54,098 nucleotides of DNA from Parcubacteria group bacterium GW2011_GWA2_43_13 (GCA_000999025.1 LCFM01000007.1:1-54098), one strand, 5' to 3'. Shown: positions 17,979 to 52,979, counted from the stretch's first letter. Numbers and translations: made by a program. The notes: generated from the sequence alone by a model not told the origin.

Positions 17979-20207
17979 ATGAAAACCATAACATTCAAAA
18001 TTACAGGTATGCACTGCGCATCATGCGCGATAAAAAATGAAAAATCGCTTAAAAAGATTGAAGGCGTGATGTCCGCTGTTGTGAATTACGCACTGAATTC
18101 GGCAACTGTTGAATATGATGAGTTGCGCGTGCAAGAGATGCAGATTCACAAAGCTATTCAAAAAAACGGATATACAGTAGAAATGGATCATGCTGATCAT
18201 AATGAAACAACAGGCGGTCATCATCATCTGTCAGGGGCCGATGATGTGAAAAAAACAAAAATCAAAGCATTGATTGCAATAATGCTTGCGCTTCCAACAC
18301 TGATTATTGCAATGGGGAAATTGACTTTTGGCCCAGAGATATTAGGAGAGCCATTATCCATGTGGATTGAATCCTTGTTAGGTACGATAACTGTTATCGT
18401 TATTGGTTGGCAATTTCATCGCGGCATGGTGAAACAGGCGCTTCACGCGTCTGCAAATATGGATACGCTCATATCAGTAGGGACACTTTCTGCGGTTATT
18501 TTTAGCTGGTGGAATGTTGTGATTGGAGCAGAGACGCGGTATTTTGAAACAGGCGCGGTTATTGCGGCCTTGATTTTGTTGGGGAAATTTTTTGAAGCGC
18601 GATCTCGCGGGCAGGCGAGTGAAGCGATTGAAAAACTTCTTAAATTGGGAGCAAAAACCGCGCGTCGTATCATGAATGGAGTTGAGGAAGACATTCCTAT
18701 TGAAGAGGTAAAGATAGGAGATATTCTTTTAGTAAAACCGGGTGAAAAAATCCCGACTGACAGCGTTGTTGTATCTGGTGAATCTGCAATTGATGAATCC
18801 ATGCTCACCGGTGAAAGCGTTCCGGTTGATAAAAAAATAGATGACCAAGTATTTGGCGCGACAGTGAATACGAATGGCGCGTTGACAATAAAAGCTGTTA
18901 AAATTGGCAACGAAACCGTGCTGGCGCAGATTGTGAAAATGGTATCAGACGCGCAGACGCAAAAAGCTCCGATCCAAAAATTGGCAGATAGTATATCTGG
19001 AATTTTTGTGCCAGTTGTTATTGTACTTGCTATTATAACCGGCATTGTATGGTATGTGATTTCCGGCTCAATAGAGCCGGCGCTTGTGAACGCGGTTGCC
19101 GTATTGGTGATTGCGTGTCCATGCGCGTTAGGGCTTGCAACGCCGACAGCGATTATGGTTGGCACGGGCAGGGGAGCAGGTCTTGGTATCTTAATTAAAA
19201 ATGGGGAATCGCTTGAGCGGGCAAAACGGATTGATGCGGTTATGTTTGATAAAACAGGGACGCTGACAGTTGGTAAACCGGTTGTGACGGATATCATTTT
19301 TGTAGAGACGTCCCGTGGGGACGTCTCCGATGAGACGCGGCAACGCCACGTCTCTACAGAACGCGACCTTCTCCAAATCGCGGCAAGTGTTGAAGCGTTA
19401 TCAGAACATCCTCTTGCTCAAGCAGTTGTAAATAAAGCAAAAGAGATGAGTGCTGAGATTTTTTCAGCTCAAAATTTTCAAGCCATTTCAGGTAAAGGGG
19501 TACAGGCAGTAGTTGATGGGAAGATGGTACTCATTGGAACCATGACATTTATGACTGATAACAGCATTGACGCTACGAGCATTGAATCGCAAAAATCAGT
19601 ATTAGAATCGCAGGCAAAAACAGTGTTTATTGTTGCATTAGATAGTGTGGTTATTGGGTTGATTGCTGTTGCCGATACCATAAAAGAAGATGCAAAAGAA
19701 GCAGTTGAGATGTTGAAAAAAATGCACATTGATCCGGTGATGATTACAGGTGATAATCAAAAAACAGCACAAGCAATTGCGAATCAATTGGGCATTACCA
19801 ATGTTCGGGCAGAAGTTTTGCCGCAAGATAAAGCGCGCGAAGTAAAAGCATTACAAGAACAAGGTAAAAAAGTCGCGTTTGTGGGTGATGGGATCAATGA
19901 TGCTCCTGCGTTAGTGCAAGCAGATTTGGGCATTGCTATGGGAACAGGCACTGATATCGCGATTGAAGCAGGCAATATTGTGCTGGTAAAAGGCGATCCG
20001 CGCAAAGCAGTGGAGGCATTGCGTTTAGCGCACGCGACCTTTAGAGGCATTCAACAGAATTTATTTTGGGCGTTTGTGTATAACATCATCGGCATTCCGT
20101 TAGCGGCGTTGGGATTTTTAAACCCGATTATCGCAGGCGGAGCAATGGCGTTTAGTTCGGTAAGCGTGGTGCTTAATTCTTTGCGATTGAAGCGGGTGAA
20201 GTTGTAA
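17979..20207 (+). CDS. copA: Copper-translocating P1B-type ATPase
   Basis: [43 protein letters not shown]. Confidence 0.93.
19301..19358. repeat. Family B palindrome inserted in frame inside copA
   Basis: TGTAGAGACG...CGTCTCTACA encodes [19 protein letters not shown]. Confidence 0.9.
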
Positions 20208-20214
20208 TTTCATC

Positions 20215-20249
20215 TCCCCCTCATTGATAAGGAGGGGGGATGGGGAGGT
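20215..20249 (+). repeat. REP-like palindrome, family A
   Basis: TCCCCCTCATT gat AAGGAGGGGGGATGGGGAGGT after the copA stop. Confidence 0.65.
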
Positions 20250-20310
20250 AAAAAAATAGTCCTGCCGACTGGGTGATGTTGAGGTTCACCAAGTCGGCAG
20301 GACAGCCCTG

Positions 20311-20808
20311 TCAGGAAGAGTATGTCGCCACTCTTCCTGACTCGAACGTGCATTCGTCGAGAGCAGTCATCCCTGATGCTGTATGATGTTCTGCTCTGTC
20401 CAGATGGGCAGTTCCTATCAACACTACTCTGATGATCAACTCTTCTTCTTCTTTCTCAACCCTCCTTACCGCCACCTCGTCCCAAATGATGTGGAAGCGA
20501 GGATAAGGATTCGCATTGATTGGACGAACCCAGCCAGCCGGAATCGAGAATCGTCGTTTGAGTTTCGGAATCGAAAATTCGATTCGCGGAGGCAACTCAA
20601 ATCTCGATTTTGGCGCGGGCCTGTACTCGCAATCCTTCATCCAATCGGTGAGCGATGCATCGAAACACCCTTCCCCAAGAGGAAGAGGAACGCGTGCTCC
20701 TGCCTTTCGCTTGGCACGAATTTTTTTAGTAGGATGCCCATTTTTCCCTACGAGTTCGAGTTCAATAGAGACGAACGAATTCGTGGTTTCATGATAGTAC
20801 CGGTTCAT
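20311..20808 (-). CDS. Hypothetical protein
   Basis: ORF with AAGGAGAAGG upstream of the ATG at 20808; no recognised motif. Confidence 0.55.
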   Translation of the reverse strand: MNRYYHETTNSFVSIELELVGKNGHPTKKIRAKRKAGARVPLPLGEGCFDASLTDWMKDCEYRPAPKSRFELPPRIEFSIPKLKRRFSIPAGWVRPINANPYPRFHIIWDEVAVRRVEKEEEELIIRVVLIGTAHLDRAEHHTASGMTALDECTFESGRVATYSS

Positions 20809-20965
20809 GATACCTTCTCCTTTTGAGTTGACTCGCAAACGGAAGCGAGTATGGTATTAAAACAGATGAGTATTATTTGTCAAATTTGTTGATATTCATT
20901 GTATTTTAATGTTTTTAGATGTATGATATTAGGAATATCAGAGTAAATTAATCCACAATATTCCT

Positions 20966-21547
20966 ATGAAATTTGAACTTTCGCAACTTCCCTACGCGTA
21001 TAACGCGCTTGAGCCATATATTGATGCTCAAACCATGGAGATTCACCACGCAAAGCATCATCAGGCATATATTGATAAACTCAATACAGTAGTTGAAAAA
21101 TATTCCACGCTCGCTGATATGAGTGTTGAGGATTTGCTTAAAACTCTTAAAACGCTTGAAGTAGATGAAGTAGATAGAATTGCGATACAAAATCATGGTG
21201 GTGGCCATGCTAATCATGCGTTTTTTTGGGATAACATGGCGCCACAAAAACAGGGCGATGAAACACTGAAATCAGATATCGAATTAGCGTTTGGTTCGAC
21301 AGACGCGTTTAAGCAAGAGTTTGCAAAAGCCGCGGTCTCTCGATTCGGAAGTGGCTGGGCATGGCTTGTGCGTGATGAAGATAACGCGCTTAAAGTATAT
21401 TCAACCGCAAATCAGGATTCGCCATTATCGCAAGGCCATACGCCCATTATCGGCCTTGATGTGTGGGAACATGCGTATTATCTCAAATACCAAAACCGTA
21501 GACAAGAATATATTGATAATTGGTGGAGTGTGGTGAAGGTGTTATAG
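20966..21547 (+). CDS. sodA: Superoxide dismutase (Mn/Fe, Mn-like signature)
   Basis: [44 protein letters not shown]. Confidence 0.93.
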
Positions 21548-21553
21548 AAATTG

Positions 21554-21587
21554 TGTAGAGACGCCCCGCCAGCTGGCGGGGCGTCTT
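21554..21587. repeat. Family B palindrome, probably acting as a terminator between convergent genes
   Basis: AGACGCCCCGCCAG/CTGGCGGGGCGTCT followed by a T run. Confidence 0.7.
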
Positions 21588-21624
21588 TTAAATAAAAAAA
21601 CACACGGCAACCAGTAGACGTTGA

Positions 21625-23178
21625 TCACCGTGGTAAAGCAGGGATGACGCGACGCAGTGCGTCTGTCAAGTTCCGCGAAAATGCTGAATTCTCTACCCAG
21701 TACACGCGATAACGGTCGCGTGGGGTTGAGAGTTCCATGATTTTCGCGGCATGTTCTGGTTCAGCGTCCCCGAATGGTTGAATCCCCTTTTTCGATCGCA
21801 CAAGCCAATCGAGAGGGACTTTCAATTGCGCTGGAGCTTCTTCCAGAACAACACACTGACAGCCATTGCGTTTGAGTTCAACCTCAAAGTGGGTTGCTGC
21901 TTCTTTTGACTTGAAACCTCGAATATGGGTTTGATAACGGAAACAGAGCAATGTGTTTTCCGTATCCGTCACAGTGCCCAATGTTTTTTTCAAGAAGTAT
22001 GCAAGTTCGTCATCCCCCACTGCAAGGAGAAATTCTCGAGTAAGAATTCCCGCCCTATACAGTGGCTTAAGGATGATATTCGCTAACATTACTTCTTCGA
22101 TACGAGCACCTGGGTGCCAGTACAGGTGCGTTCCCAGGATAGCGCGGAGTTCCAAGAAGACGCCAAGCCGTTTCGCGTTCGTGAAATAAGGGTTTTCTCC
22201 CTGTACGCGAACGCTATCCCATATTCCGCAGACAAGCGGGTAGCGGGTAACGAGTTGGTTGATCATCTGCGTTCCCGCGAGGTCTGGCCATTCGCTTGGG
22301 AATAGTGATCGGAACCACTTGGTGTCGTTCGCGACATACGCGATTTTATCTGCGATGTCGAGAAGTTTACCAAGGAGTCCTTCATTGCGGATGATGGCCC
22401 ATATTTCCTTTTGAGTGAAGTTGAATCGACGGACGAATTCGCGCCATGCTTCACCGGTGAGGATTTCGGGATAGTTGCGATCTTCATCGAGCCCGAGTCG
22501 GTCGATGATTTTAGTGGTATCCCCACCGCCTGGAGTAAGAGCGTCATGGGTTGCGGTTGCAAACCCAAGTTTGACTTCATCGCGGTAGGATAGGTTTACT
22601 CCTTTTGCGATCAACATCCCGATAATAAACACATCAAACGTGTGCGCGAATCGGCCATGTCCGTATCTTTCTAAATAAAGATTTCGGAACGGCTGATACG
22701 TATCGTTGACCGCAGGAATATGGAGGAAGCTCAATTGTCGCGTTCTTCTTAACCTCCGCAAGTTGAAGCCATCAACCACCTGTTGCAGGAGTCCATCTTC
22801 CATGGTAGTACACTGTATCCCGGTAAACGGGATTTCATTGATGATCATGAAGACGGGATCCAGCGCCTCATGTGCTCGATTGGCATGGATGTGTCTTCTC
22901 ACTTGTATAGGTAATTGTGCTACCCATGCCGGTTGTTTGTCTTTTTCCACTCCTTCCATTTCATGTTGAGCGATGACTTGGAATGCACTCATGGCAGGAT
23001 CACCGAGTCGTATTTCCGCATCTGGAAAGAGTTGTTGAAGCAAACCAGAGCGGGCAATCCAATGATAAACTCGCCAGAGTCGCATCCAACTTTTCCAATG
23101 TGGCCGCAACACAATACTGTCTCCAATAGAGAGACAGCCCTCCATGCCCTGGAGGTATCGAGCTGTTACCTTTGGCAT
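21625..23178 (-). CDS. HD-domain phosphohydrolase (SAMHD1/dNTPase-like)
   Basis: LRRTRQLS, HGRFAH, THD, DIADKIAYV; AAGGAG ribosome-binding site. Confidence 0.75.
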   Translation of the reverse strand: MPKVTARYLQGMEGCLSIGDSIVLRPHWKSWMRLWRVYHWIARSGLLQQLFPDAEIRLGDPAMSAFQVIAQHEMEGVEKDKQPAWVAQLPIQVRRHIHANRAHEALDPVFMIINEIPFTGIQCTTMEDGLLQQVVDGFNLRRLRRTRQLSFLHIPAVNDTYQPFRNLYLERYGHGRFAHTFDVFIIGMLIAKGVNLSYRDEVKLGFATATHDALTPGGGDTTKIIDRLGLDEDRNYPEILTGEAWREFVRRFNFTQKEIWAIIRNEGLLGKLLDIADKIAYVANDTKWFRSLFPSEWPDLAGTQMINQLVTRYPLVCGIWDSVRVQGENPYFTNAKRLGVFLELRAILGTHLYWHPGARIEEVMLANIILKPLYRAGILTREFLLAVGDDELAYFLKKTLGTVTDTENTLLCFRYQTHIRGFKSKEAATHFEVELKRNGCQCVVLEEAPAQLKVPLDWLVRSKKGIQPFGDAEPEHAAKIMELSTPRDRYRVYWVENSAFSRNLTDALRRVIPALPR

Positions 23179-23275
23179 CAGAGTGGCTCCTTGGTGGTGT
23201 GTGCTGAATAGTTTTCAGCAGACCAGAATAACACGGAGTATTGTATACGTCAAAACAAAAAACCAACGAAAGAGG

Positions 23276-23986: not shown

Positions 23987-24078
23987 CGTCCCTCCTGATT
24001 TCAACCTTATCAGTCATCTTTTTTTGTGTCAAAATATTCAATTGTATTTTTAGCGGATGTATGAGATATTTTTAAAGT

Positions 24079-25320: not shown

Positions 25321-25330
25321 TCTCTATTCT

Positions 25331-26947
25331 ATGTGTATACGCATTTTCTTTGCATTGTTTCTCTTTATTCAGATTGCGACATTCCCGTTGATCGGACATG
25401 CATCGCAAGAGCAAGATCAAACACAATCATCTCAACAAGAAGGCGAGGTTCTTCCCTCAATGATCAGGGCTGTTGAAGCAAATGCCGGAGATGATCAAAG
25501 CGCGCTGGTTAATACCGAGTCGTTTTTCAGTGCTGAAAAATCAGTGATTTCCCAGGGCAGAGAAGAGGGCGTGTCATATGTGTGGAGTTTTGGCGATGGA
25601 GCGACTGGGATGGGCAGGGATGTTAGCCATGTGTATAAAGAGCCCGGGGAATATCGCGCAACGGTTATTATTGAGGATAGCGGAATCAATAGCAAAGACA
25701 GCGATGATATTATTGTGCGCGTGATGGAAGATGCTATTTTTTTAATGTATACCGAAGATGTGCCTCAAGAAAGTATTGCAGAAGCCGTTACTGCTGGCCA
25801 ACGAAATAATTTTCTCGTCCATCTTTTGGGAGTAAAAAAAGACGCGCAGGATTTTGTGCTTGAGAACAATCTTTCAAATGAATTATTGGAACGGACAGCG
25901 GAAATTCGCAAATCAAAATTGATTGTGTTGTGGACAGAAGGATCAATCGGCATCAACGCGCTTGCCCGATTCGGCCAGACAATTAAAAATCCTGGCGATT
26001 TTTCTAAAAAAGGCATTGTGGTTGTTGAGGAAAGTTCATCCAATATTTTAGCGCGTCTTGCTCAGCCGATTTTTGACATTTTTACGCCACAATATTTATT
26101 GATAGCATCTCCGCGTTTAGTGTCGCAGATTATTCAAGACACAACAACAGATACGGTTATTGCGAATGTTCAGCAAAGCGGTGAACAGTTTCGTATTTTG
26201 GGAATTCACTCGCGCCGCGATGTCAGCACGCTCACACCGTACAACTTTTTTTCCGTGTTTATTAACTGGCTGATTAACCGCGGTGTTTCGGTTAACACGG
26301 TATTTTTGATTCTGATGTTGCCGATTATTGCCACTATCGTTGCTTTTTCGCGTCAAATTATTGGCATTAAAACATTTGGTATTTATATTCCAACTATTCT
26401 TACCATTACGCTTGCAACAACCGGGTTGAAAGAGGGGTTGATTATTTTGGCAATGATTTTGTGCATTGGCACTATCGCACGCATGGTATTAAAAAAATTA
26501 CGTTTGCTGTATCTGCCTCGCGTTGCGTTGGTACTGACGTTAGTGAGCTTTGCGATGCTGGCCCTGCTTTCGGCAAGCACATATTACCGCACCCTTAACC
26601 TTATTGGTGTATCCATTTTCCCGATTCTGATTTTGATTGTATTGGTTGAAGAGTTTGTGAAAGTGCAGATGGAGGAAGGTACAAAAACCGCCACGTTTAT
26701 CACAACCGAAACGTTAGCCATTGCAATAGTGGGATATTATGTTGTGCAAACATCATTTGTAAGGAATTTTGTGTTAAGTTATCCTGAAATAGTTTTGATT
26801 ACTGTGTTGATTAATTATATTCTTGGCAGATGGCACGGCCTGCGGTTGCTTGAATATTATCGGTTTCGCAATGTGCTTGCCGTTATTTCAGAACAAAAAG
26901 AAAGTAAAAAGAAAGTTCCTCAAGATCATGAGAATGAGCAAGGATAA
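25331..26947 (+). CDS. PKD domain plus 7TM transglutaminase-associated membrane domain
   Basis: YVWSFGDG...HVYKEPGEY (PKD); LMLPIIAT..RQIIGIKTFGIYIP, FPILIL, GLRLLEYYRF. Confidence 0.8.
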   Translation: MCIRIFFALFLFIQIATFPLIGHASQEQDQTQSSQQEGEVLPSMIRAVEANAGDDQSALVNTESFFSAEKSVISQGREEGVSYVWSFGDGATGMGRDVSHVYKEPGEYRATVIIEDSGINSKDSDDIIVRVMEDAIFLMYTEDVPQESIAEAVTAGQRNNFLVHLLGVKKDAQDFVLENNLSNELLERTAEIRKSKLIVLWTEGSIGINALARFGQTIKNPGDFSKKGIVVVEESSSNILARLAQPIFDIFTPQYLLIASPRLVSQIIQDTTTDTVIANVQQSGEQFRILGIHSRRDVSTLTPYNFFSVFINWLINRGVSVNTVFLILMLPIIATIVAFSRQIIGIKTFGIYIPTILTITLATTGLKEGLIILAMILCIGTIARMVLKKLRLLYLPRVALVLTLVSFAMLALLSASTYYRTLNLIGVSIFPILILIVLVEEFVKVQMEEGTKTATFITTETLAIAIVGYYVVQTSFVRNFVLSYPEIVLITVLINYILGRWHGLRLLEYYRFRNVLAVISEQKESKKKVPQDHENEQG

Positions 26948-26961
26948 TATAGATTCCGTAT

Positions 26962-27052
26962 TGTAGAGACGTGCCGTTGGCACGTCTTGAATACATACTA
27001 CCGCTTTGAGACGCCATTCCTCCAGGCGGGTGGGTAGCGAGGCGTCTCTACA
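26962..27052. repeat. Family B composite palindrome
   Basis: TGTAGAGACGTGCC...GGCACGTCT ... GAGACGCC...GGCGTCTCTACA. Confidence 0.8.
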
Positions 27053-27064
27053 CAACGATATTTT

Positions 27065-28534
27065 ATGGATATCTTCAAAATGTTGAAATCAAGTAAATCG
27101 CTTCTCGGGATGAACTCCCGCAATCTTGAATTTGTTCATCCTTCTAATGCAAAACGGGCAGTGCAGATTGCAGATAATAAACTGCTGACAAAACAGGTAT
27201 TGCAGAAGCATGATATTCCAGTGCCAAAGGTGTACTCTGTGATAGGCACTAAAAAAGATATTAACGCTTTTTCTGCTGATTCATTGCCAGACAGTTTTGT
27301 GTTAAAACCCAATCGCGGGTTTGGCGGCGAAGGGATTCTGATTGTGTATGCGCGAAAAAAAAACGGCTATTGGATTGATTCTGATAAAAATGAAATTTCA
27401 AGCGATGATATTAAATCGCATTTGCAGGATATTTTAGATGGCAGATTTTCACTGTCTGATACGCCTGACATTGCTTTTTTTGAAGAGCGCCTTGTGAACG
27501 ATCCTCTGCTTAAATCCATTGCGTACAAAGGTGTGCCTGATATTCGAGTGATTGTGTATAATAAGGTTCCGATTATGGCAATGATGCGTTTGCCAACGCC
27601 GGAATCGCATGGCAAAGCAAACCTTCACATGGGTGGAATCGGTATCGGGATTGATATTGCAACCGGCAGAACAACGCGCGCGATTCAGTATGACGAATTG
27701 CTTGTGCTTCCTGGCGGAGTTACTCCGTTAGATGGGTTTAAAATTCCTATGTGGGAAGATATTTTGCAACTTGCAATTCGCGCTCAACAGGTGAGTGATT
27801 TGGGGTATTTGGGTATTGATATTGTGTTGGTAAAAGATAAAGGTCCGGTGGTGTTGGAGTTGAACGCTCATCCTGGGTTATCAATTCAAATTGCCAATAT
27901 GACCGGCTTAAAAGAACGGCTCTTGCGCGTGCGTGGTCTTGATGTTGATTCAATTGAAAAGGGGATTCGCGTGGCAAAAGAATTATTTTCTGATCATTCG
28001 CTGATTGATCGAGAAGGCACGGTGGTTGCGCCGGATGAACCGAAAATTATCCGTTCATCAGAGAGTGTGTATGTGTATCATAAAAACGGCGATGATCGGA
28101 TGAAAGTGAACGCGCGTATTGATTCCGGCGCAAAAACAACATCGCTTGATTTGGAACACGCGCGTTTGATTGGATTTGACGATGCAGTAGAATTTTTAAA
28201 AGAATATCCGGTCGGCAGTCCCATGACTGCGACAAAAGCTGAACGTGTGCGCACAAAAATTGCTAAACAAATAAAATCACATCCGGATATTGTTCGGGTG
28301 CGCGCGATTCATTCCGCATCCGGATCAACAGTTCGGGCGTATATTCCGCTGACTATTAAATTAAAAAATAAAAAAGTAAAAACCGTTGCCGCCTTGATTG
28401 ATAGAAGTCATTTAAAATTTCCTATGATTATCGGCAGAAAGGATTTAAAAGGATTTCTTGTTGATCCCGCGCTTGAGCACACAGTTCAAGATGTAACCCC
28501 ACCCTCTCCGCCAACTGGCGGGCCCTCATCGTAA
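27065..28534 (+). CDS. Alpha-L-glutamate ligase-like ATP-grasp enzyme fused to a retropepsin-like protease domain
   Basis: GMNSRN, DNKLLTK, VLKPNRGFGGEG, PDIRV, ANLHMGG, LELNAHPGL; C-terminal ARIDSGA, DRSHL.FPMIIGR. Confidence 0.85.
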   Translation: MDIFKMLKSSKSLLGMNSRNLEFVHPSNAKRAVQIADNKLLTKQVLQKHDIPVPKVYSVIGTKKDINAFSADSLPDSFVLKPNRGFGGEGILIVYARKKNGYWIDSDKNEISSDDIKSHLQDILDGRFSLSDTPDIAFFEERLVNDPLLKSIAYKGVPDIRVIVYNKVPIMAMMRLPTPESHGKANLHMGGIGIGIDIATGRTTRAIQYDELLVLPGGVTPLDGFKIPMWEDILQLAIRAQQVSDLGYLGIDIVLVKDKGPVVLELNAHPGLSIQIANMTGLKERLLRVRGLDVDSIEKGIRVAKELFSDHSLIDREGTVVAPDEPKIIRSSESVYVYHKNGDDRMKVNARIDSGAKTTSLDLEHARLIGFDDAVEFLKEYPVGSPMTATKAERVRTKIAKQIKSHPDIVRVRAIHSASGSTVRAYIPLTIKLKNKKVKTVAALIDRSHLKFPMIIGRKDLKGFLVDPALEHTVQDVTPPSPPTGGPSS

Positions 28535-29240: not shown

Positions 29241-29242
29241 CG

Positions 29243-29805: not shown

Positions 29806-29865
29806 ATGATGAAACGACAATCAATCATGATGTCAATGACCATGATGCCAGCCCCCACGGGTTGA
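29806..29865 (+). CDS. Met-rich leader peptide MMKRQSIMMSMTMMPAPTG
   Basis: 19 codons, 7 of them ATG; its end overlaps the attenuator stems. Confidence 0.75.
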   Translation: MMKRQSIMMSMTMMPAPTG

Positions 29866-29934
29866 AGATTGTTGTTGTAAAGATATTTCTTATTCATAAC
29901 ATCATTCTTTAGCCCTCTATGCGGGCTCTTTTTT
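29849..29934 (+). promoter_or_regulatory. Transcription attenuator (antiterminator plus terminator)
   Basis: 1:2 CAGCCC/GGGTTG; 2:3 GGGTTGAAGA (29859-68)/TCTTTAGCCC (29906-15); 3:4 AGCCC/GGGCT followed by CTTTTTT. Confidence 0.72.
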
Positions 29935-42493: not shown

Positions 42494-42502
42494 TAAAAAT
42501 AC

Positions 42503-42582
42503 TGTAGAGACGCACCGATGGTGCGTCTTTGTGATGGAGGTATTATGAAACGCAAAAGACGTAGCACCGCTACGTCTCTACA
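42503..42582. repeat. Family B composite palindrome
   Basis: TGTAGAGACGCACC/GGTGCGTCT ... AGACGTAGC/GCTACGTCTCTACA. Confidence 0.8.
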
Positions 42583-42688
42583 CAGTCCCTTTAGAGAGGT
42601 ATCAAATAATTTTGCTAAAATTAGGTATTTCTTGTATGGTACTATCCTGTTCTTTCAGTATCATTCAATCTTAACCAAGGAGAACGCC

Positions 42689-43510
42689 ATGGAGAGGCGA
42701 CGGCTGATGCTCGTCACTGGCGTTCGTGTGCCAGATGACACAAAGCCGAAAGGTAGTGTCGGATTTCATGTTCTGCGCAAGTTGTTGGAACTTGGGTGGG
42801 ATGTAATCGTTCATGCGCGAAAAGTAGAATACGCGTATAATCTTGAGCAACATCTTCCGCATAGCACGCTTGGCTCTATAGTTGCTATGGGCTATGGGGA
42901 TTTGCCCGAGGCGATTACCAATACAGAGATGCGCTCTGCGTTGGGTCATGCTGTGCGTGTCTCGGCAATTCGACGAGGGTGCCAATCTGGGGTTGGACAA
43001 CTCTTGGATGCTGTTGTCTTGACTCCGGGCCCGTTTCCTGCACATCCGCTCGATGTGCTTGGGTATCAAGAAGTCGCTACGCTTTGGGAATCGAATTTCG
43101 GCTATATCCACAAAGTCATGGACAGTATTAATCCTCTTCTGTCAGGTGATGCCCGAATCATCACCTTTTCAATCTCAACAGCCCACATAATACTTGAGGG
43201 CAGAGAAGATGTTGATGTCGGTGCGCCGGCTCGGGTGTGCTATGCCCGTGCCAAGCGGGATGTGGAGGCGTGGACCGAGGAGTGGAATCAACTCCACGCA
43301 CATGACAGATCGCGCGCTTATTGCATGGCGTATGGGGTGTTAGAAAACTCTGTGGTATGGCCTATAGAGTTTGACCCACGATATCTCGTTACCATGCAAG
43401 AGGCGATTGAGCCGATCGTATCGCTTGTCCACTTCGGCATATCATGCGATCAATCAGTGATACCGATTGATAAGGGCTTGGCACGGCACATGAACAAAAG
43501 CGGAAAGTAG
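42689..43510 (+). CDS. Divergent SDR-family NAD(P)-binding oxidoreductase
   Basis: LVTG...GSVG Rossmann start, LDAVV, YxxxK (YARAK); AAGGAG RBS. Confidence 0.55.
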   Translation: MERRRLMLVTGVRVPDDTKPKGSVGFHVLRKLLELGWDVIVHARKVEYAYNLEQHLPHSTLGSIVAMGYGDLPEAITNTEMRSALGHAVRVSAIRRGCQSGVGQLLDAVVLTPGPFPAHPLDVLGYQEVATLWESNFGYIHKVMDSINPLLSGDARIITFSISTAHIILEGREDVDVGAPARVCYARAKRDVEAWTEEWNQLHAHDRSRAYCMAYGVLENSVVWPIEFDPRYLVTMQEAIEPIVSLVHFGISCDQSVIPIDKGLARHMNKSGK

Positions 43511-45465: not shown

Positions 45466-45551
45466 TGGATCTTGCGGGCGTAAGGGATGAGAATGTCATC
45501 ATCCCTGCGCCCTTGCTTTTTTTTATACGAATCAGTTAATCTTGATTTTAT

Positions 45552-46901
45552 ATGAATACGTTTGAACGCTACTATCAAGCGGTTCGGTTTTTAGAGGGAT
45601 TATCCAATATCGCTCCGCAAAAAAATTACATGACAAGCCATACGCATCCGGGGATGTATCTTAAACGGATGCAATATCTTTTGAAATTACTTGGGAATCC
45701 GCACATCGGACCGAAGTATATTCATGTTACTGGAACAGCTGGGAAGGGGACTGTGGCGAATATGGTGTATCAGGTGTTGTTGGAGTACTGTAGAGACGGG
45801 CTTAACCCCGTCTCTACAGTGCACGATATATCGAATGTCGGGTTGTTCACCTCGCCGTTCCCCACCACAACCATTGAAAAATTTTCAGTCAATGGAAGAT
45901 ATATTTCACCTGATGAATTTGCGGATTTGGTTGATAGTATCAAACCGGTATTAGATGTCATGGCGAAAAAATGTCCGCATGGGATTGCGTCGTATTTTGA
46001 AATTTGCACTGCGTTGGCATTGTTGTATTTTAAAGCAATGAACTGCACATGGGTGGTGTTAGAGGTGGGGTGTGGGGGGAGGTACGACAGTACGAACGTG
46101 ATACCCGCGCCTGTTGCCGCGGTGATTACCAATATCGGATTAGATCATACAAAAATTTTAGGAAATACAGTATCAAAAATCGCATATGAAAAAGCAGGAA
46201 TTATAAAAAAGGGATGTCGCGTATACACTGCGGAACAGCGACCGCGATTGCGAAAGATTTTTCAATATGAGTGCGATAAGGTTGGCGCGAAATTATTTTG
46301 CGTAGAGACGCCCCGTTGGGGCGTCTCCCGAAAGACGGGGCACCGCCCCGTCTCTACAAACAAAGCGTTGGTTCAAGCCGTCCTTACTGATGTAGGTATT
46401 TCTCAAAAAATTATTAACACCGGCATTGCGAAAGCAAAACTTCCATGCAGATTTGAAATCATTCAAAAAAATCCAATAGTTATTTTAGACGGCGCGCATA
46501 ATGATTTAAAACTTTTTTCAACCATTGAAAACCTTGCTTTACTCTCGTATAAAAAATTATATTTAATTATTGCTTTAAGTGAGGCAAAGCGCGTGGATCA
46601 ATCACTTGCTTTGTTATGTAAAAAAGCAGAACAAGTTATCTGTACACGATTTCAGAACGGCGGTCATAACCGGGCAGTAGCTCCACAAAAATTGGCGCAA
46701 AAGGCGAGGCATTGGAATAAACGCGTCTATTCGTTTCTTGACCCAATACGCGCTTTGGAGTATGTTTTTTCGATTGCCACGCAAGATGACGCAGTGCTTG
46801 TTACTGGGTCATTTTACCTGGCAGGCGATTTTCGCAAGCAATGGATCAGTGAAATGGCCATACTTGCCCATCGAACCAGCTTTCCGTTTAAGAAGCAGTA
46901 A
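45552..46901 (+). CDS. folC: Folylpolyglutamate synthase / dihydrofolate synthase
   Basis: IHVTGTAGKGT, GLFTSP, LEVGCGGRYDSTN, IGLDH, EKAGI, LDGAHN, TGSFYL. Confidence 0.92.
   Translation: MNTFERYYQAVRFLEGLSNIAPQKNYMTSHTHPGMYLKRMQYLLKLLGNPHIGPKYIHVTGTAGKGTVANMVYQVLLEYCRDGLNPVSTVHDISNVGLFTSPFPTTTIEKFSVNGRYISPDEFADLVDSIKPVLDVMAKKCPHGIASYFEICTALALLYFKAMNCTWVVLEVGCGGRYDSTNVIPAPVAAVITNIGLDHTKILGNTVSKIAYEKAGIIKKGCRVYTAEQRPRLRKIFQYECDKVGAKLFCVETPRWGVSRKTGHRPVSTNKALVQAVLTDVGISQKIINTGIAKAKLPCRFEIIQKNPIVILDGAHNDLKLFSTIENLALLSYKKLYLIIALSEAKRVDQSLALLCKKAEQVICTRFQNGGHNRAVAPQKLAQKARHWNKRVYSFLDPIRALEYVFSIATQDDAVLVTGSFYLAGDFRKQWISEMAILAHRTSFPFKKQ
45789..45818. repeat. Family B palindrome in frame inside folC (copy 1)
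   Basis: TGTAGAGACGGGCTTAACCCCGTCTCTACA encodes CRDGLNPVST. Confidence 0.9.
46302..46358. repeat. Family B palindrome in frame inside folC (copy 2)
   Basis: 57 bp encoding VETPRWGVSRKTGHRPVST. Confidence 0.9.
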
Positions 46902-46912
46902 AGGAGAGCGAC

Positions 46913-47314
46913 ATGTTGTTCCTTTCTTTTTTTGAGATACCCAGGACCGGTGTTGGGGTGTACCTGTGCGATGGTGAGAGGGAGTCATGGGTTCCTCTTG
47001 ATGCCTTCTGTGATTGTTGTGGTCTTGATACTCAAGAAGCCAAGATAGTACGTGCTACCGTTGAATCTGTATGTAAGAAGGAGGAGTTGAATATCCTTTT
47101 TAAGCATTCGATCATGGCAAGTATATCAGTGGATCAAAAGCAGACGACCCCGGACTTCTTTTCCATATTGTGGCGATTAGAGTCCGTTGGGTTATGGCTT
47201 CTTGATAATAAAGGGCAGTCCCGTCTGTCTTCTGCCCCAGAGCTAATATCGTTCGAGGGCTTTGATATAAGGGACATCGCGAATACGTTGTTTGGTTCTG
47301 AAGAAGAGGAATAA
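46913..47314 (+). CDS. Hypothetical protein
   Basis: ORF with AAGGAG RBS; no recognised motif. Confidence 0.55.
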   Translation: MLFLSFFEIPRTGVGVYLCDGERESWVPLDAFCDCCGLDTQEAKIVRATVESVCKKEELNILFKHSIMASISVDQKQTTPDFFSILWRLESVGLWLLDNKGQSRLSSAPELISFEGFDIRDIANTLFGSEEEE

Positions 47315-47318
47315 GATG

Positions 47319-47350
47319 CTTCCTCTCTTATTGAGAGAGGAAGTAGGGGG
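47319..47350 (+). repeat. Family A-related palindrome
   Basis: CTTCCTCTC ttatt GAGAGAGGAAG TAGGGGG. Confidence 0.55.
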
Positions 47351-47417
47351 TAGTGCGATTAACGCAACGCCCTCTTTTTTTTGCAAAAGAGCGCAAAGAT
47401 GTGTATGGTATGAATAT

Positions 47418-49220
47418 ATGATGCAGATGATTTCAAAAAGTTTTATAGCCATTGCTATTGGGCTTTGCATTGTAGTTGTGATTGGTATTTTTGTATTATC
47501 TCAAACGAGTTCAAGTAGTGTGTTAAGGCAAAGTGGTAGTTCGCACAAGGAACAAACAATCGTTCTTACTGACGATATATGGACAGAGAAAATGCCAACC
47601 AAGTCGCCTGCTCCTGCGGCTGGAAAAGTACGCGCGTTGTTTCTTCCGTATGATAATTCTGCTCTTTCTCACAATGCCACAGTGTTTGCTTCTATAAGCC
47701 ATCAGCCGATTAAACGGGTTATCATTATCGGTAGAGACGTGCCTCTGGCGCGTCTCCCCGTTGATGGAGACGCCCCAGGGGGGCGTCTCTACAACACAAC
47801 AGTCGCTTCGTGGGATACGCCGTTGGGTATTGTCCATGGAGATGCCAACGTTGTGGCGCAACTGGGCGGTTCGGGTGATGACGCGATATTTGAAAAAGAA
47901 CCAAGTATCACGGCTCATATTCCCTTGATTGCCAACTATTTTCCCAAAGCGAAAGTTATTCCTTTGATAGTAGGGAGTGATGTTACCATAGAAGACGCGC
48001 GAGAAAAAATCGCATCAATGTTGAATGACTCAACACTGCTTATCGCAAGCACACATCTCTCTTCTGATGCGCTTCAGCTGTTTCACGACGCGCATGCGCT
48101 ATCAGTGATCCGCTCTCTTGATGAGCAAAGCACTGTATCTCTTGACGTGGAATCGCCAAAAGCGCTTTCTCTTTTTATTTCTTTATTGAAATCAATGAAC
48201 ATTGGATCATCTGATGTTGTATCAGCGCAATCATTTGTATCTTTAGATAACAAACACACGGGAACAGCGGTGATTCGTTTTTATGAAAACGGCACAATAG
48301 CGTCTCGGCCGGTATCGCTGTTGTTTTTTGGGGATATGATGCTCGGTAGAACTGTTGAGCAAAAGGTAACGCATAACAATCTTGATGTGCTGTTTGAAAA
48401 CATGGTTCCTGCAGGCGCGAAAGAATTTTTTGGACAAGACGCGCTCATTTCAAATTTGGAAGGGCCGGTGGTGCAAACGCGTACGCCGAAATTTAAAGAG
48501 ATTCAGTTTGGGTTTGATCCGGTGGTTGTGCCGCAACTCAAGTCATGGGGTTTTGACGCGTTTTCTTTGGCAAATAATCATGCATTAGATCAGCATTACG
48601 CAGGGCTTGAAGAAACAAAAAAACATATAGAAGGTAATGGGCTTGTGTGGTTTGGCGATCAGGTGAAGGAGTCAAATGAGAATGTAAAATTTATTGAGCA
48701 GGCCGGAAAAAAGATCGCCTTTATTGGGTTTAACACCACTGACAATCCGTTTTCCATAGAAGAAATGAAAAGTGTGGTAGAAAAAGCAAAAGAACAATCC
48801 CAGATTGTCATTGTGATGATGCATTGGGGGAATGAATATCAGTATCTTGGATTTTCTCCGCAACAGCAAGAGATAGCGCACGCGCTTGCAGATAGCGGCG
48901 CAGATGCGGTGATCGGCGGTCATCCGCATGTTGTTCAGCCCATGGAAGTGTATCATGGTGTCCCGATTTTTTATTCATTAGGTAATTTTATTTTTGATCA
49001 GTATTTTTCACAACCCACGCAAGAAGGGGTGGCTCTTGGGTTGGTCGTGGATCAGTCAACAATTCAAGCGTATGTGTTTCCATTTTTTTCACGCGGATCA
49101 ATTCCGTCTTGGATGCCTCGGGATCAATCTGAATTGTGGCTGAACGCGTTTTATGAAAAATCGCTTATGGCCGAGGCATCAAATGTGCAAGGCAGTGCGG
49201 TAACCATAGATCGGAAATAA
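47418..49220 (+). CDS. Membrane-anchored MEMO1/AmmeMemoRadiSam-B-like domain fused to a CapA (PGA_cap) metallophosphoesterase
   Basis: WDTPLG, EPSI, IASTHLS (degenerate MEMO); FGDMMLGR, NLEG, LANNH.LD, HWG.EY, GGHPHV, YSLGNF. Confidence 0.82.
   Translation: MMQMISKSFIAIAIGLCIVVVIGIFVLSQTSSSSVLRQSGSSHKEQTIVLTDDIWTEKMPTKSPAPAAGKVRALFLPYDNSALSHNATVFASISHQPIKRVIIIGRDVPLARLPVDGDAPGGRLYNTTVASWDTPLGIVHGDANVVAQLGGSGDDAIFEKEPSITAHIPLIANYFPKAKVIPLIVGSDVTIEDAREKIASMLNDSTLLIASTHLSSDALQLFHDAHALSVIRSLDEQSTVSLDVESPKALSLFISLLKSMNIGSSDVVSAQSFVSLDNKHTGTAVIRFYENGTIASRPVSLLFFGDMMLGRTVEQKVTHNNLDVLFENMVPAGAKEFFGQDALISNLEGPVVQTRTPKFKEIQFGFDPVVVPQLKSWGFDAFSLANNHALDQHYAGLEETKKHIEGNGLVWFGDQVKESNENVKFIEQAGKKIAFIGFNTTDNPFSIEEMKSVVEKAKEQSQIVIVMMHWGNEYQYLGFSPQQQEIAHALADSGADAVIGGHPHVVQPMEVYHGVPIFYSLGNFIFDQYFSQPTQEGVALGLVVDQSTIQAYVFPFFSRGSIPSWMPRDQSELWLNAFYEKSLMAEASNVQGSAVTIDRK
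47731..47793. repeat. Family B palindrome in frame inside the MEMO-CapA gene
   Basis: 63 bp encoding (G)RDVPLARLPVDGDAPGGRLY. Confidence 0.88.
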
Positions 49221-49226
49221 ACAGTT

Positions 49227-49310
49227 TGTAGAGACGTCCCCTTGGGGCGTCTCATTGTTTTCTGCTATACTGTAAAGAATAGTAGAGACGGGGTTAACCC
49301 CGTCTCTACA
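49227..49310. repeat. Two family B palindromes
   Basis: TGTAGAGACGTCCC...GGGGCGTCTC and GTAGAGACGGGGTTAACCCCGTCTCTACA. Confidence 0.85.
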
Positions 49311-49317
49311 AAAAAGT

Positions 49318-50667
49318 ATGGCATCACACAACAACAAACATCAAAATCACACAGCGCATATTGTTGCCGTTGATATGGGATATGGTCATGAGCGGCCGGC
49401 GTATTCGTTAAAACACCTTGCGCGCGACGGCGAAGGAGTGATTGTGGCGAACAATTATCGTGGTATCCCGTGGAAAGACCGTTTTTTGTGGGAGAGTTCG
49501 CGCACGCTGTATGAAACATTGTCCCGCGCAAAGGCGGTGCCGTTTGTTGGAAAATATATTTTTGGTATTTTAGACCAAATGCAAGAGATTCAGCCATTTT
49601 ACCCTGCGCGCGATCTTTCGCACCCAAGCGCGCAAACGCGCCAAATTTACGCGGCTTTCAAATTAGGGTTGGGCAGGGATTTAATAGATCGTCTTCGGGA
49701 TAATCCTATCCCGTATATCACGACATTTTTTATCACCGCGTTCATGGCAGAGGAATTTGACTATCCGGGTGATATTTTTTGTATTACCACAGATACTGAT
49801 ATTTCTCGCGCATGGGCGCCTTTGGACCCGCGTAAAAGCAGAATCCAGTATTTTGCCGCCACAGGCAGATGCGTGGAGCGATTAAAACTCTATGGCGTGC
49901 GGGAAGAAAATATCCATTTGACAGGATTTCCATTGCCGCCTGATTTAATTGGCGGCGCTGATGCGGATATCGCGGTAAAAGCGCTTCGACGGCGATTGCA
50001 TGTGCTTGATCCGCGTGGCGTGTTTCAATGTAAATATGGGAAAGTGGTATCACGCACATTAGGTGAAACAAGCCCGCCTCGTTCTGCTCCGCCACCAACA
50101 GTGCTGTTTGCTATTGGAGGAGCAGGGGCTCAAAAACAGCTGGCTCTTACGATTATGCATAGTTTGCGTCATGTGATCGCGCGTGGCGAGATTCGGTTGA
50201 TATTATGTCCGGGTACGCGGTTGGGCGTAGCTCAATGGCTTGAACGGTATGCGCGGTATTGGAACTTAGGGAGTGCGTTAGGAAAAAATCTTATCATTTT
50301 CGCGGCAAAAAAACGGAAAATTTATTTTGAAGAATTTACCCGCTTGCTTGCTGAAGCAGATATTTTATGGACCAAACCCTCGGAATTGAGTTTTTATACC
50401 GGATTGGGTTTGCCGATTATAGCTTCGTATCCGATCGGGTCGCAAGAAGAGTATAACCTTCACTGGTTACATCAAGTAGGCGGTGGCGTATCTCAACCGG
50501 ATCCGCGGTATGCTGGCGAATGGTTGATTGATTGGATTGAATCAGGCGCATTGGCGCGCATGGCATGGCATGGGTTTGTCGAGGCGCCGACTCATGGCGC
50601 GTATCGTATAGAGAATGTGGTGTTTGGCAAAAAAATGCCGATAGAGGAACTGCCGTTGATTGTTTAA
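49318..50667 (+). CDS. GT-B glycosyltransferase-like protein (MGDG synthase-like)
   Basis: DMGYGHER, TDTDISRAW, TGFP, GGAG, ADILWTKPSE, PIGSQE..N. Confidence 0.65.
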   Translation: MASHNNKHQNHTAHIVAVDMGYGHERPAYSLKHLARDGEGVIVANNYRGIPWKDRFLWESSRTLYETLSRAKAVPFVGKYIFGILDQMQEIQPFYPARDLSHPSAQTRQIYAAFKLGLGRDLIDRLRDNPIPYITTFFITAFMAEEFDYPGDIFCITTDTDISRAWAPLDPRKSRIQYFAATGRCVERLKLYGVREENIHLTGFPLPPDLIGGADADIAVKALRRRLHVLDPRGVFQCKYGKVVSRTLGETSPPRSAPPPTVLFAIGGAGAQKQLALTIMHSLRHVIARGEIRLILCPGTRLGVAQWLERYARYWNLGSALGKNLIIFAAKKRKIYFEEFTRLLAEADILWTKPSELSFYTGLGLPIIASYPIGSQEEYNLHWLHQVGGGVSQPDPRYAGEWLIDWIESGALARMAWHGFVEAPTHGAYRIENVVFGKKMPIEELPLIV

Positions 50668-50668
50668 T

Positions 50669-51952
50669 ATGAGGATTTCTCGCTCGCATGAAGATAATCG
50701 AACATATCGCAACTCGCACCATCGGGATAATCTTTTGGCATTTCCGAAAAATTTTGAATGGGGCGCGGCAACAGCGCCGCATCAGGTAGAAGGCAATAAT
50801 ATTCACAGTGATTGGTGGCAATGGGAGCCGGGTCATGTCGCGCACAATCAAACATCAGGCGAGGCGTGCGATCATTATCGCATGTTTCAATCTGATTTTG
50901 ATACCATACAACAGCTCAATCATACCGCGCATCGGCTTGGCATTGAATGGGCGCGGCTTGAGCCGAAACAGGGCGAGTGGGATCAGGATGCGATTGAGCA
51001 TTATCATGATGTGTTCCGCGCGTTAAAAAAACGCAACATAAAAATAATGCTGACACTGCATCATTTTACAAACCCGCTATGGTTTAGCGAGCAAGGGGGA
51101 TGGGAGAAAAAAAAGAATATCAAAGCGTTTTTGCGGTTTGTTGAGTTTGTTGCTCAAGAGTATCATGAATATATTGATTGGTGGATTACAATCAATGAGC
51201 CAATGGTGTATCTTACTGAAGCGTATATTTTTGGACACCGGCCACCGCAAAAGATATCGCTGTGGATAGCGTATCGAGTGTATCGCACAATGGCGTGCGC
51301 GCATCGGCTGGCGTATAAAAAAATTCACGAGATTGATCCTCATGCCCGTGTCGGGCTGGCGCACAATGTTTCATCTTATCACGCCTATCGCAAACATGCG
51401 TTTTTGGATCAATTGTTTGAAATGATACTTGATCGTGTTACCAATCATGCGTTTTTAAAAAAATCAGGATTCCCTCAATGCCATGATTTTTTAGGACTGA
51501 ATTATTATTTTCATATCCGCATCAAACATGTGCGCCTGATGAGTATACTGAAAAATTTTGATATTTTTGAACCAGTGATGACAGAACGGCGCGATACGTC
51601 TGATATCGGCTGGGAATTGTATCCGCATGGGTTATTTAATGCGCTGATGGATTTTGCCGATTCAGGCAAGCCGATATATATCACGGAAAATGGCATTGCG
51701 ACAGATGATGATAAAAAACGGCAAAAATTTATTCATGAATATATTACTGAAATCTGGCATGCCATCAACGGCGGCGCGGATGTGCGCGGGTATTTTTACT
51801 GGTCGTTACTTGATAATTTTGAATGGGAAGCTGGGTTTGGTCCGCGATTCGGGCTTGTGCATATTGATTATCAAACTCAAAAGCGCACGCTCAAACAAAG
51901 CGCGCATCTGTACGCGGAAATTTGCAAGAAAAATGGGATAGAAGCATCGTAG
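50669..51952 (+). CDS. Glycoside hydrolase family 1 (beta-glucosidase)
   Basis: FPKNFEWGAAT..HQVEG, TLHHF, TINEP, ITENG, WSLLDNFEW. Confidence 0.92.
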   Translation: MRISRSHEDNRTYRNSHHRDNLLAFPKNFEWGAATAPHQVEGNNIHSDWWQWEPGHVAHNQTSGEACDHYRMFQSDFDTIQQLNHTAHRLGIEWARLEPKQGEWDQDAIEHYHDVFRALKKRNIKIMLTLHHFTNPLWFSEQGGWEKKKNIKAFLRFVEFVAQEYHEYIDWWITINEPMVYLTEAYIFGHRPPQKISLWIAYRVYRTMACAHRLAYKKIHEIDPHARVGLAHNVSSYHAYRKHAFLDQLFEMILDRVTNHAFLKKSGFPQCHDFLGLNYYFHIRIKHVRLMSILKNFDIFEPVMTERRDTSDIGWELYPHGLFNALMDFADSGKPIYITENGIATDDDKKRQKFIHEYITEIWHAINGGADVRGYFYWSLLDNFEWEAGFGPRFGLVHIDYQTQKRTLKQSAHLYAEICKKNGIEAS

Positions 51953-51998
51953 TATACCTGTTATTTGTTTCTTGTTTTTTGTCGTTAGGTATCTTTCT

Positions 51999-52895
51999 AT
52001 GTGGTTATGGATTGTATTGATTGCTCATTTATTGAACGCGTTGTCTTTTGTTGTGAGTAAATTCATTCTGGGCCATATACAGGTAAAGCCGGCAGGGTAC
52101 GCCGGCATTATCGGAATCGCCAGTATTGTTGTGACTGCTCTCGTTCCATGGGGGTTTAGCCCATTGTCATTCGGCAGTGCGCTGATTGCTCTTGCAACAG
52201 GTGCGGTGTTTATTTGGGCGGTTTATTTCTTTTTTGTCGCTTTGGATTCAGATGAGGTTTCAACTGTCGTGCCTGTTATCGGCGCCACGATTCCAGTGAT
52301 TACTCTTATTTTTGCCGCAATTTTTTTAAGAGAGCGTCTTTCATTTTCTCTCTATGTGGCAGTTGGCGTGCTTATCATTGGCACTATATGTATGCTATGG
52401 AAAGGGGGGATGAAGCTTCGCGGGGCGCGTCGTCAATCGTTGCGCGTGGCTGTTATAGCGGCTGTGCTGTTTGCGTTATCATCAATCGGGATGAAATATA
52501 TTTTTAATCACACTGATGTTATCAATGGATTTATTTGGACTCGATGGGGATCGGTGGCGGGTGTTGGTGTTTTTTTGCTATCGCCTGTACAAAAAAAATA
52601 TGTGAAAGATGCGTTTCGTGTATTGTTTTCAAAATCAGGGTTGGTATTCGGGTTGGGAGAATCATTCGGTGGGGCTGGGTTTATTGTATTGACATACGCG
52701 CTGTCTCTTGCGAGCCCGACAGTGATTAATGCTTTGCAAGGGGTTCAGTACGCGCTCTTGCTTGCGATTGCGATTTTGGGTTGGATATTCAAACCGGATC
52801 TGTTAAAAGAATCATTCACCAGGCGCGAGATTATTTTTAAAACAATCGGAATCGTATGTATTGGCATAGGCGTATGGGTTATTGCTGGTTTGTAG
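51999..52895 (+). CDS. EamA/DMT family transporter
   Basis: About 10 TM segments, FLRERL; its stop codon TAG lies inside a family B repeat. Confidence 0.8.
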   Translation: MWLWIVLIAHLLNALSFVVSKFILGHIQVKPAGYAGIIGIASIVVTALVPWGFSPLSFGSALIALATGAVFIWAVYFFFVALDSDEVSTVVPVIGATIPVITLIFAAIFLRERLSFSLYVAVGVLIIGTICMLWKGGMKLRGARRQSLRVAVIAAVLFALSSIGMKYIFNHTDVINGFIWTRWGSVAGVGVFLLSPVQKKYVKDAFRVLFSKSGLVFGLGESFGGAGFIVLTYALSLASPTVINALQGVQYALLLAIAILGWIFKPDLLKESFTRREIIFKTIGIVCIGIGVWVIAGL

Positions 52896-52979
52896 AGACG
52901 CCACCCTGTGGCGTCTCTGGAGATGCAAAGACAGAGACACCCCCTGCCAAAGGTGGGCAGGCAAGGGGTCGTCTCTACA
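52891..52979. repeat. Family B composite palindrome with nested CCTGCC/GGCAGG
   Basis: TGTAGAGACGCCAC/GTGGCGTCTCT ... AGAGACACCCC...GGGGTCGTCTCTACA. Confidence 0.8.

Follow-up and report, generated by a model that had tools for sequence, protein, structure and literature searches.

A GTAG-type family of repetitive palindromes with a RAYT-type transposase and many in-frame copies within the genes of a Patescibacteria genome

Repetitive extragenic palindromes (REPs) are divided into the GTAG and the CGTC super-family, with subfamilies that have alternative, complementary stem bases (Di Nocera, 2013; PMC3733652; cited here and below from parts of its text). The heads of REPs can supply TAG stop codons, and transposase genes that are flanked by REPs are referred to as REPtrons. 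Intragenic singles and dimers encode 20–30 amino acids, many of them in repair and tRNA-synthetase genes, and the highest numbers of intragenic REPs are reported from Opitutus terrae and Rickettsia conorii, the latter with the Rickettsia palindromic elements (RPEs) RPE-4 and RPE-6 (PMC3733652). Here we describe repeats of this kind in a stretch of 54,098 nucleotides (LCFM01000007.1:1-54098; the window, with positions counted from its first letter) of Parcubacteria group bacterium GW2011_GWA2_43_13 (GCA_000999025.1), a bacterium with a small genome from groundwater, where copies lie in frame in copA, in folC and in a Memo-CapA fusion gene, and a gene for a transposase of the REP-associated tyrosine transposase (RAYT) type on another contig of the genome. 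Together they make up a GTAG-REP/RAYT system, with an unusually heavy colonisation of genes, in a Patescibacteria genome; the kind has been published before (PMC3733652; Rickettsia RPEs), and the lineage is new. Searches of the open-access literature found no papers joining REPs with the candidate phyla radiation (CPR).

A preliminary description, made from the sequence of the window, had compared the repeats with Rickettsia RPEs and GTAG REPs, and the comparison agrees with what is described in PMC3733652. Its interpretation is also supported by those of its proposed checks that were made here, namely alignment with orthologs, mapping of the inserts to loops, a genome-wide count and a search for the transposase. 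As in the GTAG REPs and REPtrons of that paper, there are a GTAG foot and a hairpin, singles, dimers and clusters, stem subfamilies and TAG stops; copies lie in DNA-repair, replication and tRNA-synthetase genes, where they encode ~10–30 amino acids, and a tyrosine transposase gene is flanked by repeats. Unlike in the systems presented there, the host is a Patescibacteria genome of ~1 Mb instead of a Proteobacterium or Opitutus, no more than 46 of 110 loci lie fully between genes, and the transposase gene itself holds a repeat in frame, of which no mention was found in the parts of that paper cited here. What the elements have in common with the RPEs is that a small genome carries palindromes in its essential genes, in frame, and tolerates them as extra protein segments. 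However, the short intragenic repeats of R. conorii are of the CGTC type (RPE-4, RPE-6) and RPE-1 is longer (PMC3733652; set apart by their description), whereas the elements described here are GTAG-headed, about 26–98 nt long and linked to a RAYT. The third system to be compared is that of REP doublets forming hairpins (REPINs) and their RAYTs in Pseudomonas and enterobacteria (Bertels and Rainey, 2011; PMC5581495, the latter also cited in part). Common to both are inverted doublets that can be folded as one long hairpin (here those in capA and within the RAYT gene), a single RAYT in the own genome and flanking repeats that belong to the most abundant short word. REPINs as presented in PMC5581495 are extragenic and flank the RAYT gene; here many copies are coding, and most of the RAYT genes in relatives have an internal repeat and none flanking within 300 nt.

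The sequence of the window is that of contig C7 in a 971,252-bp assembly (27 contigs, 93% complete, GC content 43%), and the nearest FolC homologs of the host genome carry Patescibacteria/CPR names. The 9-mer GTAGAGACG/CGTCTCTAC is the most frequent one of the 0.97-Mb genome with 203 copies, a strong over-representation genome-wide as is characteristic of REP families. In the window there are 25 matches to GTAGAGACG with at most one mismatch, 19 of which are exact, as compared to 4.55 ± 2.45 in shuffled sequence (0 of 100 shuffles reached 25). On direct reading the matches group into 11 loci, in line with the 10 or more sites of the preliminary description. Genome-wide, a hairpin is present at 181 of 219 heads, which yields 110 loci. 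The basic unit is (T)GTAGAGACG-N4-loop-N4'-CGTCTC and measures 25–26 nt in 154 of the 181 validated units, with the GTAG foot and hairpin of a GTAG-type REP. Besides single hairpins there are perfect 28-nt palindromes with GTAG...CTAC at both ends (among these the 28-mer GTAGAGACGGGGTTAACCCCGTCTCTAC is the commonest variant), inverted doublets of 44–113 nt with variable spacers, and longer forms with a CCGCC...GGCGG core. The most abundant repeat variant is the GGGGTTAACCCC 28-mer, the core of which is identical in 31 units. Five units form an array at C12:25437-25660 (L038:1438-1661) that resembles the bacterial interspersed mosaic elements (BIMEs); three of them are separated by a common spacer ...GTGAAAGAAAGTTT, which recurs in repeat-to-repeat joints of other metagenome runs.

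The stems are well paired despite their different sequences. The four inner stem pairs of 157 short units comprise 587 Watson-Crick, 23 G-T and 18 mismatched pairs (93.5% Watson-Crick) with 32 different 5' arms, and the Watson-Crick proportion is 92.9% in genes and 95.4% between genes, a difference that is not significant. Such perfection could be kept by template switching within quasi-palindromes or by selection for recognition by the RAYT. The base preceding the head is a T in 161 of the 203 copies, position −2 is depleted in A, and positions −3 to −8 are like background; a target-site duplication sought around the 203 copies was not found beyond a single T/A flank. Folded as single-stranded DNA, the copies in the window reach −12 to −26 kcal/mol (z-scores −4.5 to −7.5). 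The doublets in copA and folC fold into two hairpins each, those in capA and within the RAYT gene into one long REPIN-like hairpin.

The copies in the window and their host genes, with Pfam-based assignments of CopA, FolC and the Memo-like/CapA fusion, are the following.

16470-16516: long-form repeat (GTAGAGACG...CCGCCAAAGGCGG...ATCTCTAC), intergenic
17970-20207, + strand: host gene for a CopA-type P1B ATPase (HMA, E1-E2_ATPase and Hydrolase domains)
19302-19357: repeat doublet, two hairpins, in frame in copA, encoding a 19-residue peptide
21555-21580: single repeat hairpin followed by a T-run, terminator-like, 8 nt past the open reading frame (ORF) of an Fe/Mn superoxide dismutase
26963-27051: repeat doublet, intergenic, between ORFs 25331-26947 and 27065-28534
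42504-42581: repeat doublet between proS (end 42493) and ORF 42518-43510
45552-46901, + strand: host gene for FolC, Mur-ligase family
45790-45817: near-perfect 28-nt palindrome in frame in folC, peptide CRDGLNPVST
46302-46357: repeat doublet in frame in folC, peptide VETPRWGVSRKTGHRPVST, between the Mur_ligase M and C domains
47292-49220, + strand: host gene for a Memo-like/PGA_cap (CapA) fusion
47731-47792: repeat doublet in frame in the Memo-like domain, peptide GRDVPLARLPVDGDAPGGRLYN
49228-49253: single repeat hairpin 3' of capA, intergenic
49282-49309: perfect 28-nt palindrome GTAGAGACGGGGTTAACCCCGTCTCTAC, intergenic, shortly before ORF 49318-50667
51972-52895, + strand: EamA-family transporter gene, the TAG stop of which (52893-52895) is the TAG of a repeat head
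52892-52978: composite repeat (short plus long-form hairpin) overlapping the EamA stop and the 5' end of ORF 52882-53793

The four in-frame copies named in the preliminary description (one in copA, two in folC and one in the Memo-CapA gene) thus lie in open frames of real genes as judged by Pfam. The peptides quoted for copA and folC (the 19-residue peptide, CRDGLNPVST and VETPRWGVSRKTGHRPVST) were correct; the sites were also placed correctly, with bounds that included one flanking base. The copA copy had been placed just after DKTGT, from which it is in fact 18 residues away.

Alignments with orthologs, in which the in-frame insertions and their peptides are absent from CopA, FolC, CapA, UDP-glucose dehydrogenase (UGDH) and LeuRS, show where the protein has been extended. 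All 11 CopA orthologs (44–58% identity) are shorter by 13–20 residues at a variable spot. At the first FolC site 16 of 18 homologs have nothing and two (P0003, P0011) have an insert of their own. At the second site 12 of the 18 have at most a two-residue linker, only a few extra residues are present in P0004, P0007 and P0009, and P0005, P0006 and P0008 have low-complexity inserts of 60–100 residues that start with METTP (alignment A1, columns 320–400). P0003, which is 76% identical to the FolC of the window, has different and longer inserts at both repeat sites. The two FolC sites therefore seem, from these alignments, to be permissive or hot and apparently to have been targeted repeatedly in separate lineages. 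In UGDH (four sites) and LeuRS (two sites) the copies are found at variable loops and change the length by ~−5 to ~+32 amino acids relative to orthologs. Compared at the level of sequence, the CopA, both FolC and the six UGDH/LeuRS copies are lineage-specific insertions at variable loops. The clean insertions expected by the preliminary description are thus seen in copA and at both sites in folC; the CapA copy, with a net gain of 9 amino acids, replaces ~12 residues. That the inserts map to loops is borne out by the FolC model (19-sequence alignment; mean predicted local distance difference test score, pLDDT, 86.8), in which the only segments below 50 are residues 84–91 and 255–264, i.e., the two repeat peptides, between well-predicted elements.

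The folC and capA copies are also present in contigs of four other metagenome runs from groundwater and soil (X4, X7, X8 and X10; four studies), which read through them with 0 gaps and 0–4 differences. The contigs of other runs often break or jump at repeats, and repeat-to-repeat joints are many.

Genome-wide counts were made with a greedy longest-ORF model in place of a real gene caller (806 ORFs of at least 90 amino acids, coding fraction 0.895). By this model 46 of the 110 loci are intergenic, 40 lie wholly within 28 ORFs, 16 extend over 3' ends and 6 over 5' ends, and the remaining two are within 15 codons of a start. The mostly extragenic placement of REPs is therefore not observed, with 24 of the loci overlapping gene ends or N-termini in addition to those inside ORFs. 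Spanning ORFs read the head only as GTA-GAG-ACG (frame 0, VET) or as xGT-AGA-GAC (frame 1, xRD), and among the spanning ORFs of the genome none reads it in the TAG frame, which extends to the whole genome what had been noted for the window, namely that only the two open frames are used. Where repeats overlap 3' ends, the TAG of the head is the stop codon in 15 of 16 cases. These include the RAYT gene and the EamA gene (ORF 51972-52895, head starting at 52892), for the latter of which such a stop had been proposed.

Pfam domains were found in 20 of the 23 hosts outside the window and in all three within it. By Pfam tables set against locus positions, domain-matched sequence flanks 28 of the 40 internal loci on both sides, in 19 genes. 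These encode an AddA/UvrD-like protein (3 loci), LigA, LepA, MnmA, a class II ribonucleotide reductase (RNR), UGDH (4), TopA, LeuRS (2), a GT1 glycosyltransferase, ValRS, QueA, YchF, a methyltransferase (2), MiaA, QueG, CopA, FolC (2), Memo-CapA and the RAYT (2 loci, one doublet).

A transposase flanked by the same repeats, which the preliminary description had suggested should be looked for, is encoded at G000:C12:29271-29840. A six-frame scan of the own genome with PF01797 (Y1_Tnp) gave no match, because the in-frame repeat splits the domain. In the genomes of relatives the PF01797 matches are split, weak and adjoining palindromes, and the ORFs there contain the palindrome. With these ORFs as tblastn queries, G000:C12:29268-29825 was found at E 5e-34. 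RAYT surveys of CPR genomes by the Y1_Tnp hidden Markov model alone will therefore undercount. The encoded protein, P0001 (189 amino acids), scores 23.5 bits with PF01797 when the full ORF is used (cut-off 23), 59.6 bits (E 3e-16) with REP_Tyr_transpos of NCBIfam and E 0.064 with IS200. Its single sequence match in the Protein Data Bank (PDB), and thus the sole solved structure found by sequence, is TnpA-REP from E. coli (4ER8), with which the HUH motif and the WQxRF(Y/W)(D/E)HxIRN...YIxxNP region (in P0001 WQxRFYDHIIRN...YIGIN) can be aligned. The identity is ~22%, and P0001 has a longer loop from the HUH strand to the helix that follows, because this part is repeat-encoded. The residue of TnpA-REP that we take to be catalytic is Tyr115. 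For the model of P0001 (30-sequence alignment, mean pLDDT 85.0) the best fold match is again 4er8_A, ahead of the IS200/IS605 transposases.

The RAYT gene is intact and bracketed by repeats at C12:29159-29244 and 29837-29892, the downstream one providing the TAG stop, and its ORF holds a 98-nt repeat doublet in frame. This doublet covers the only segment of the P0001 model with a pLDDT below 50 (residues 98–116). The contig carries 19 repeat loci as compared to 4.8 expected (Poisson P ~8e-7).

Among 401 genomes of the same class, the pattern GTAGAGACG-N8-14-CGTCT was found in 78, with at most 2 matches per genome on either strand for the reversed control. The own genome has the highest count, 164, followed by 89 in the runner-up. 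A P0001-like RAYT is present in 105 of the 401 genomes, with up to 9 RAYT matches per genome in relatives. Pattern and RAYT occur together in 56 genomes, the pattern alone in 22, the RAYT alone in 49 and neither in 274 (odds ratio 14, which is descriptive only since related genomes are not independent). With at least 10 pattern matches required, 23 of 27 genomes have the RAYT. The genomes G148, G156, G189 and G211 have 14–42 pattern matches at a completeness of 77–98%. A search with P0001 of 5.8 billion proteins, of which only 50 candidates were scored, gives little information on spread. It can be mentioned that a RAYT homolog, P0129 (from a metagenome-assembled genome that the source names Acidobacteria), has in the same loop several repeat-like peptides (ETPSRGVST, VETPWRGVST) and three further ones in a C-terminal extension.

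The in-frame repeat is a regular feature of the related RAYT genes. Each of the 30 best RAYT loci comes from a different genome, and many families and genera are represented. In 25 of the ORFs there is a GTAG...CTAC palindrome, the ends of which pair perfectly over at least 8 bases and in nearly all cases over 14 bp. By a looser rule, which admits doublets, there are 27, at one conserved alignment position just past the HUH strand; the other three have degenerate remnants (VETRRGAS, CRDALKCVS and GKGVLQYAL). Frame 0 is used to read the palindrome in 15 of these genes and frame 1 in the other 12. The resulting peptides are unrelated, and the constraint is therefore on the nucleic acid (DNA or RNA) and not on the peptide. 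Of the cells in 17 such 28-mers (12 distinct) 99.3% pair, as compared to 26–56% in slid controls. Compensatory double changes are found in 7 of 12 pairs, and there are 28 doubly changed cells versus 7.1 ± 2.0 after shuffling (0 of 500 shuffles reached 28). A second palindrome of this type within 300 nt of the gene is present at only 7 of the 30 loci, and in G019 and G044 the motif is confined to the inside of the RAYT gene. In G014 the RAYT-internal palindromes showed no simple one-to-one match with the dispersed variants of that genome.

From this distribution it might be, although we are inclined to doubt it, that in this RAYT clade an in-frame palindrome is obligatory inside the ORF and is the recognition hairpin of the RAYT itself. 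The alternative is repeated insertion at a hot spot in the RAYT ORF. No mention of a REP within a RAYT ORF was found in the open-access literature, including the parts cited here of PMC3733652, Quentin 2018 (PMC6006769) and Bertels 2017 (PMC5581495). If such a hairpin were obligatory, the embedded copy would be a heritable seed of the dispersed REPs, transposase and substrate would become inseparable on transfer, and the 30-nt design with two open frames would adapt a REP to life in coding DNA. A seed copy would also give a testable answer to the questions of how RAYTs and REPs stay matched over long times and of how REP families originate.

The explanation of the whole that we consider likely is that a GTAG-type REP family has been spread by a RAYT-type HUH/Y1 transposase and has been retained in genes in the form of frame-keeping loops. 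In analogy to TnpA-REP from E. coli, the RAYT (G000:C12:29271-29840) would most likely recognise GTAG-footed hairpins on single-stranded DNA and copy them to new sites. Many of the insertions would hit genes because about 90% of the genome is coding. An intragenic copy would survive only if it adds a multiple of three bases, if it is read in either of the two frames free of stops and if it has landed in a loop or linker that tolerates it. A unit of T + 28-mer + A has 30 nt and would therefore keep the frame by construction. The copies retained would be present as loops of 10–33 residues, probably disordered, in housekeeping proteins, and copies in the third frame would end the gene with the TAG of their GTAG head.

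Several observations speak against this explanation, or against parts of it. Four of the 27 genomes with at least 10 pattern matches (G148, G156, G189 and G211) are without a P0001-like RAYT at E ≤ 1e-5, and the 59.6 bits of P0001 are below the 80-bit equivalog cut-off of NCBIfam for REP_Tyr_transpos. The GGGGTTAACCCC 28-mer differs from the variants in and beside the sole RAYT of the 93%-complete assembly, in view of which a second RAYT may be absent from the assembly or have been lost. The gene boundaries are based on ORFs, with no gene caller behind the genic and intergenic counts, and 12 of the 40 internal loci are in tails at the N- or C-terminus or in ORFs that have no domains. Part of these 12 may be extragenic, because repeats that are open in two frames can extend ORFs spuriously. 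The CapA copy is in frame, but the residues that it replaces include a conserved (N/D)(H/Y)F motif, so the inserts are not all neutral. Finally, an insert-free allele was not seen among the contigs of the four other metagenome runs, which is weak evidence since contigs drop rare variants. The inserts of the window consequently look fixed rather than recently mobile, and of the "active source of new peptide loops" proposed in the preliminary description the loops are supported, the activity being still a proposal.

It could be argued that the intragenic copies never reach the protein, either because the RNA loses them or translation skips them, or because the hosts are decaying pseudogenes, and that the open frames are incidental. 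The motif of the Memo-like domain deleted by the CapA copy would fit to this, and the strong DNA hairpins (−12 to −29 kcal/mol) could be processing signals. Copies that are removed would, however, need no preservation of frame or length, and the TAG-frame reading is absent from the spanning ORFs. The hosts are full-length, single-copy essential genes (aminoacyl-tRNA synthetases, LigA, TopA, RNR) with intact domains on both sides, and RPE-bearing proteins of Rickettsia are expressed according to the part of PMC3733652 cited here. We therefore find this quite improbable. That the palindromes are kept for a function in the host, as hairpins for mRNA stability or termination or as protein-binding DNA sites, rather than as selfish elements, is an unlikely proposal too. 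It can draw on the 15 genes ended by a repeat TAG, on the T-runs after several single units (e.g., at 21555), on the covariation of the stems and on pairing that is equally good inside and outside of genes (92.9% versus 95.4%). Yet the sites vary between orthologs and lineages, the hosts are functionally unrelated, the distribution within the class has gaps and follows that of the RAYT, and the loci are enriched around the RAYT gene. A role for some of the copies would be compatible with spread by the RAYT and would not replace it.

Spread by another enzyme, for example as a miniature inverted-repeat transposable element (MITE) with terminal inverted repeats mobilised by a DDE transposase, would account for the inverted-repeat ends and the T...A flank, for the commonest 28-mer variant without matching RAYT in the assembly and for the 22 motif-positive genomes without a P0001-like RAYT match. 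It is nevertheless very improbable, considering that target-site duplication is limited to a single T/A, that a GTAG foot with hairpin is the recognition architecture of RAYTs, that the RAYT gene is flanked by the repeats and contains them, and that motif and RAYT co-occur with an odds ratio of 14. Least of all do we believe that the intragenic copies are artefacts of the assembly of a metagenome-assembled genome. The contigs of other runs do break or jump at repeats often, but independent contigs span the folC and capA inserts (0 gaps, 0–4 differences), and the flanking protein sequence is colinear with that of orthologs.

Spread by the RAYT with retention as loops would mean that dozens of insertions of 10–33 residues in core enzymes are tolerated even by a streamlined genome of ~1 Mb. 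This matters for annotation, for aligning CPR proteins and for the origin of new loops.

Some of the copies in the window border on genes in a way that should be mentioned. The hairpin behind the superoxide dismutase ORF runs straight into TTTTAAATAAAAAAA (21555-21600) and resembles an intrinsic terminator; elsewhere in the genome several lone units end in CGTCTTTT. The spacer of the doublet at 42504-42581 has a GGAGG followed by an ATG at 42545, and the downstream ORF to 43510 is without Pfam match. This ORF may start within the doublet and have a repeat-encoded N-terminus (MKRKRRSTATSLH...). The GC skew is positive all along the window (1-54098), the + strand of which carries nearly all long ORFs. 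The only Rfam matches are to four tRNAs, the genes of which are clustered at 9024-9938.

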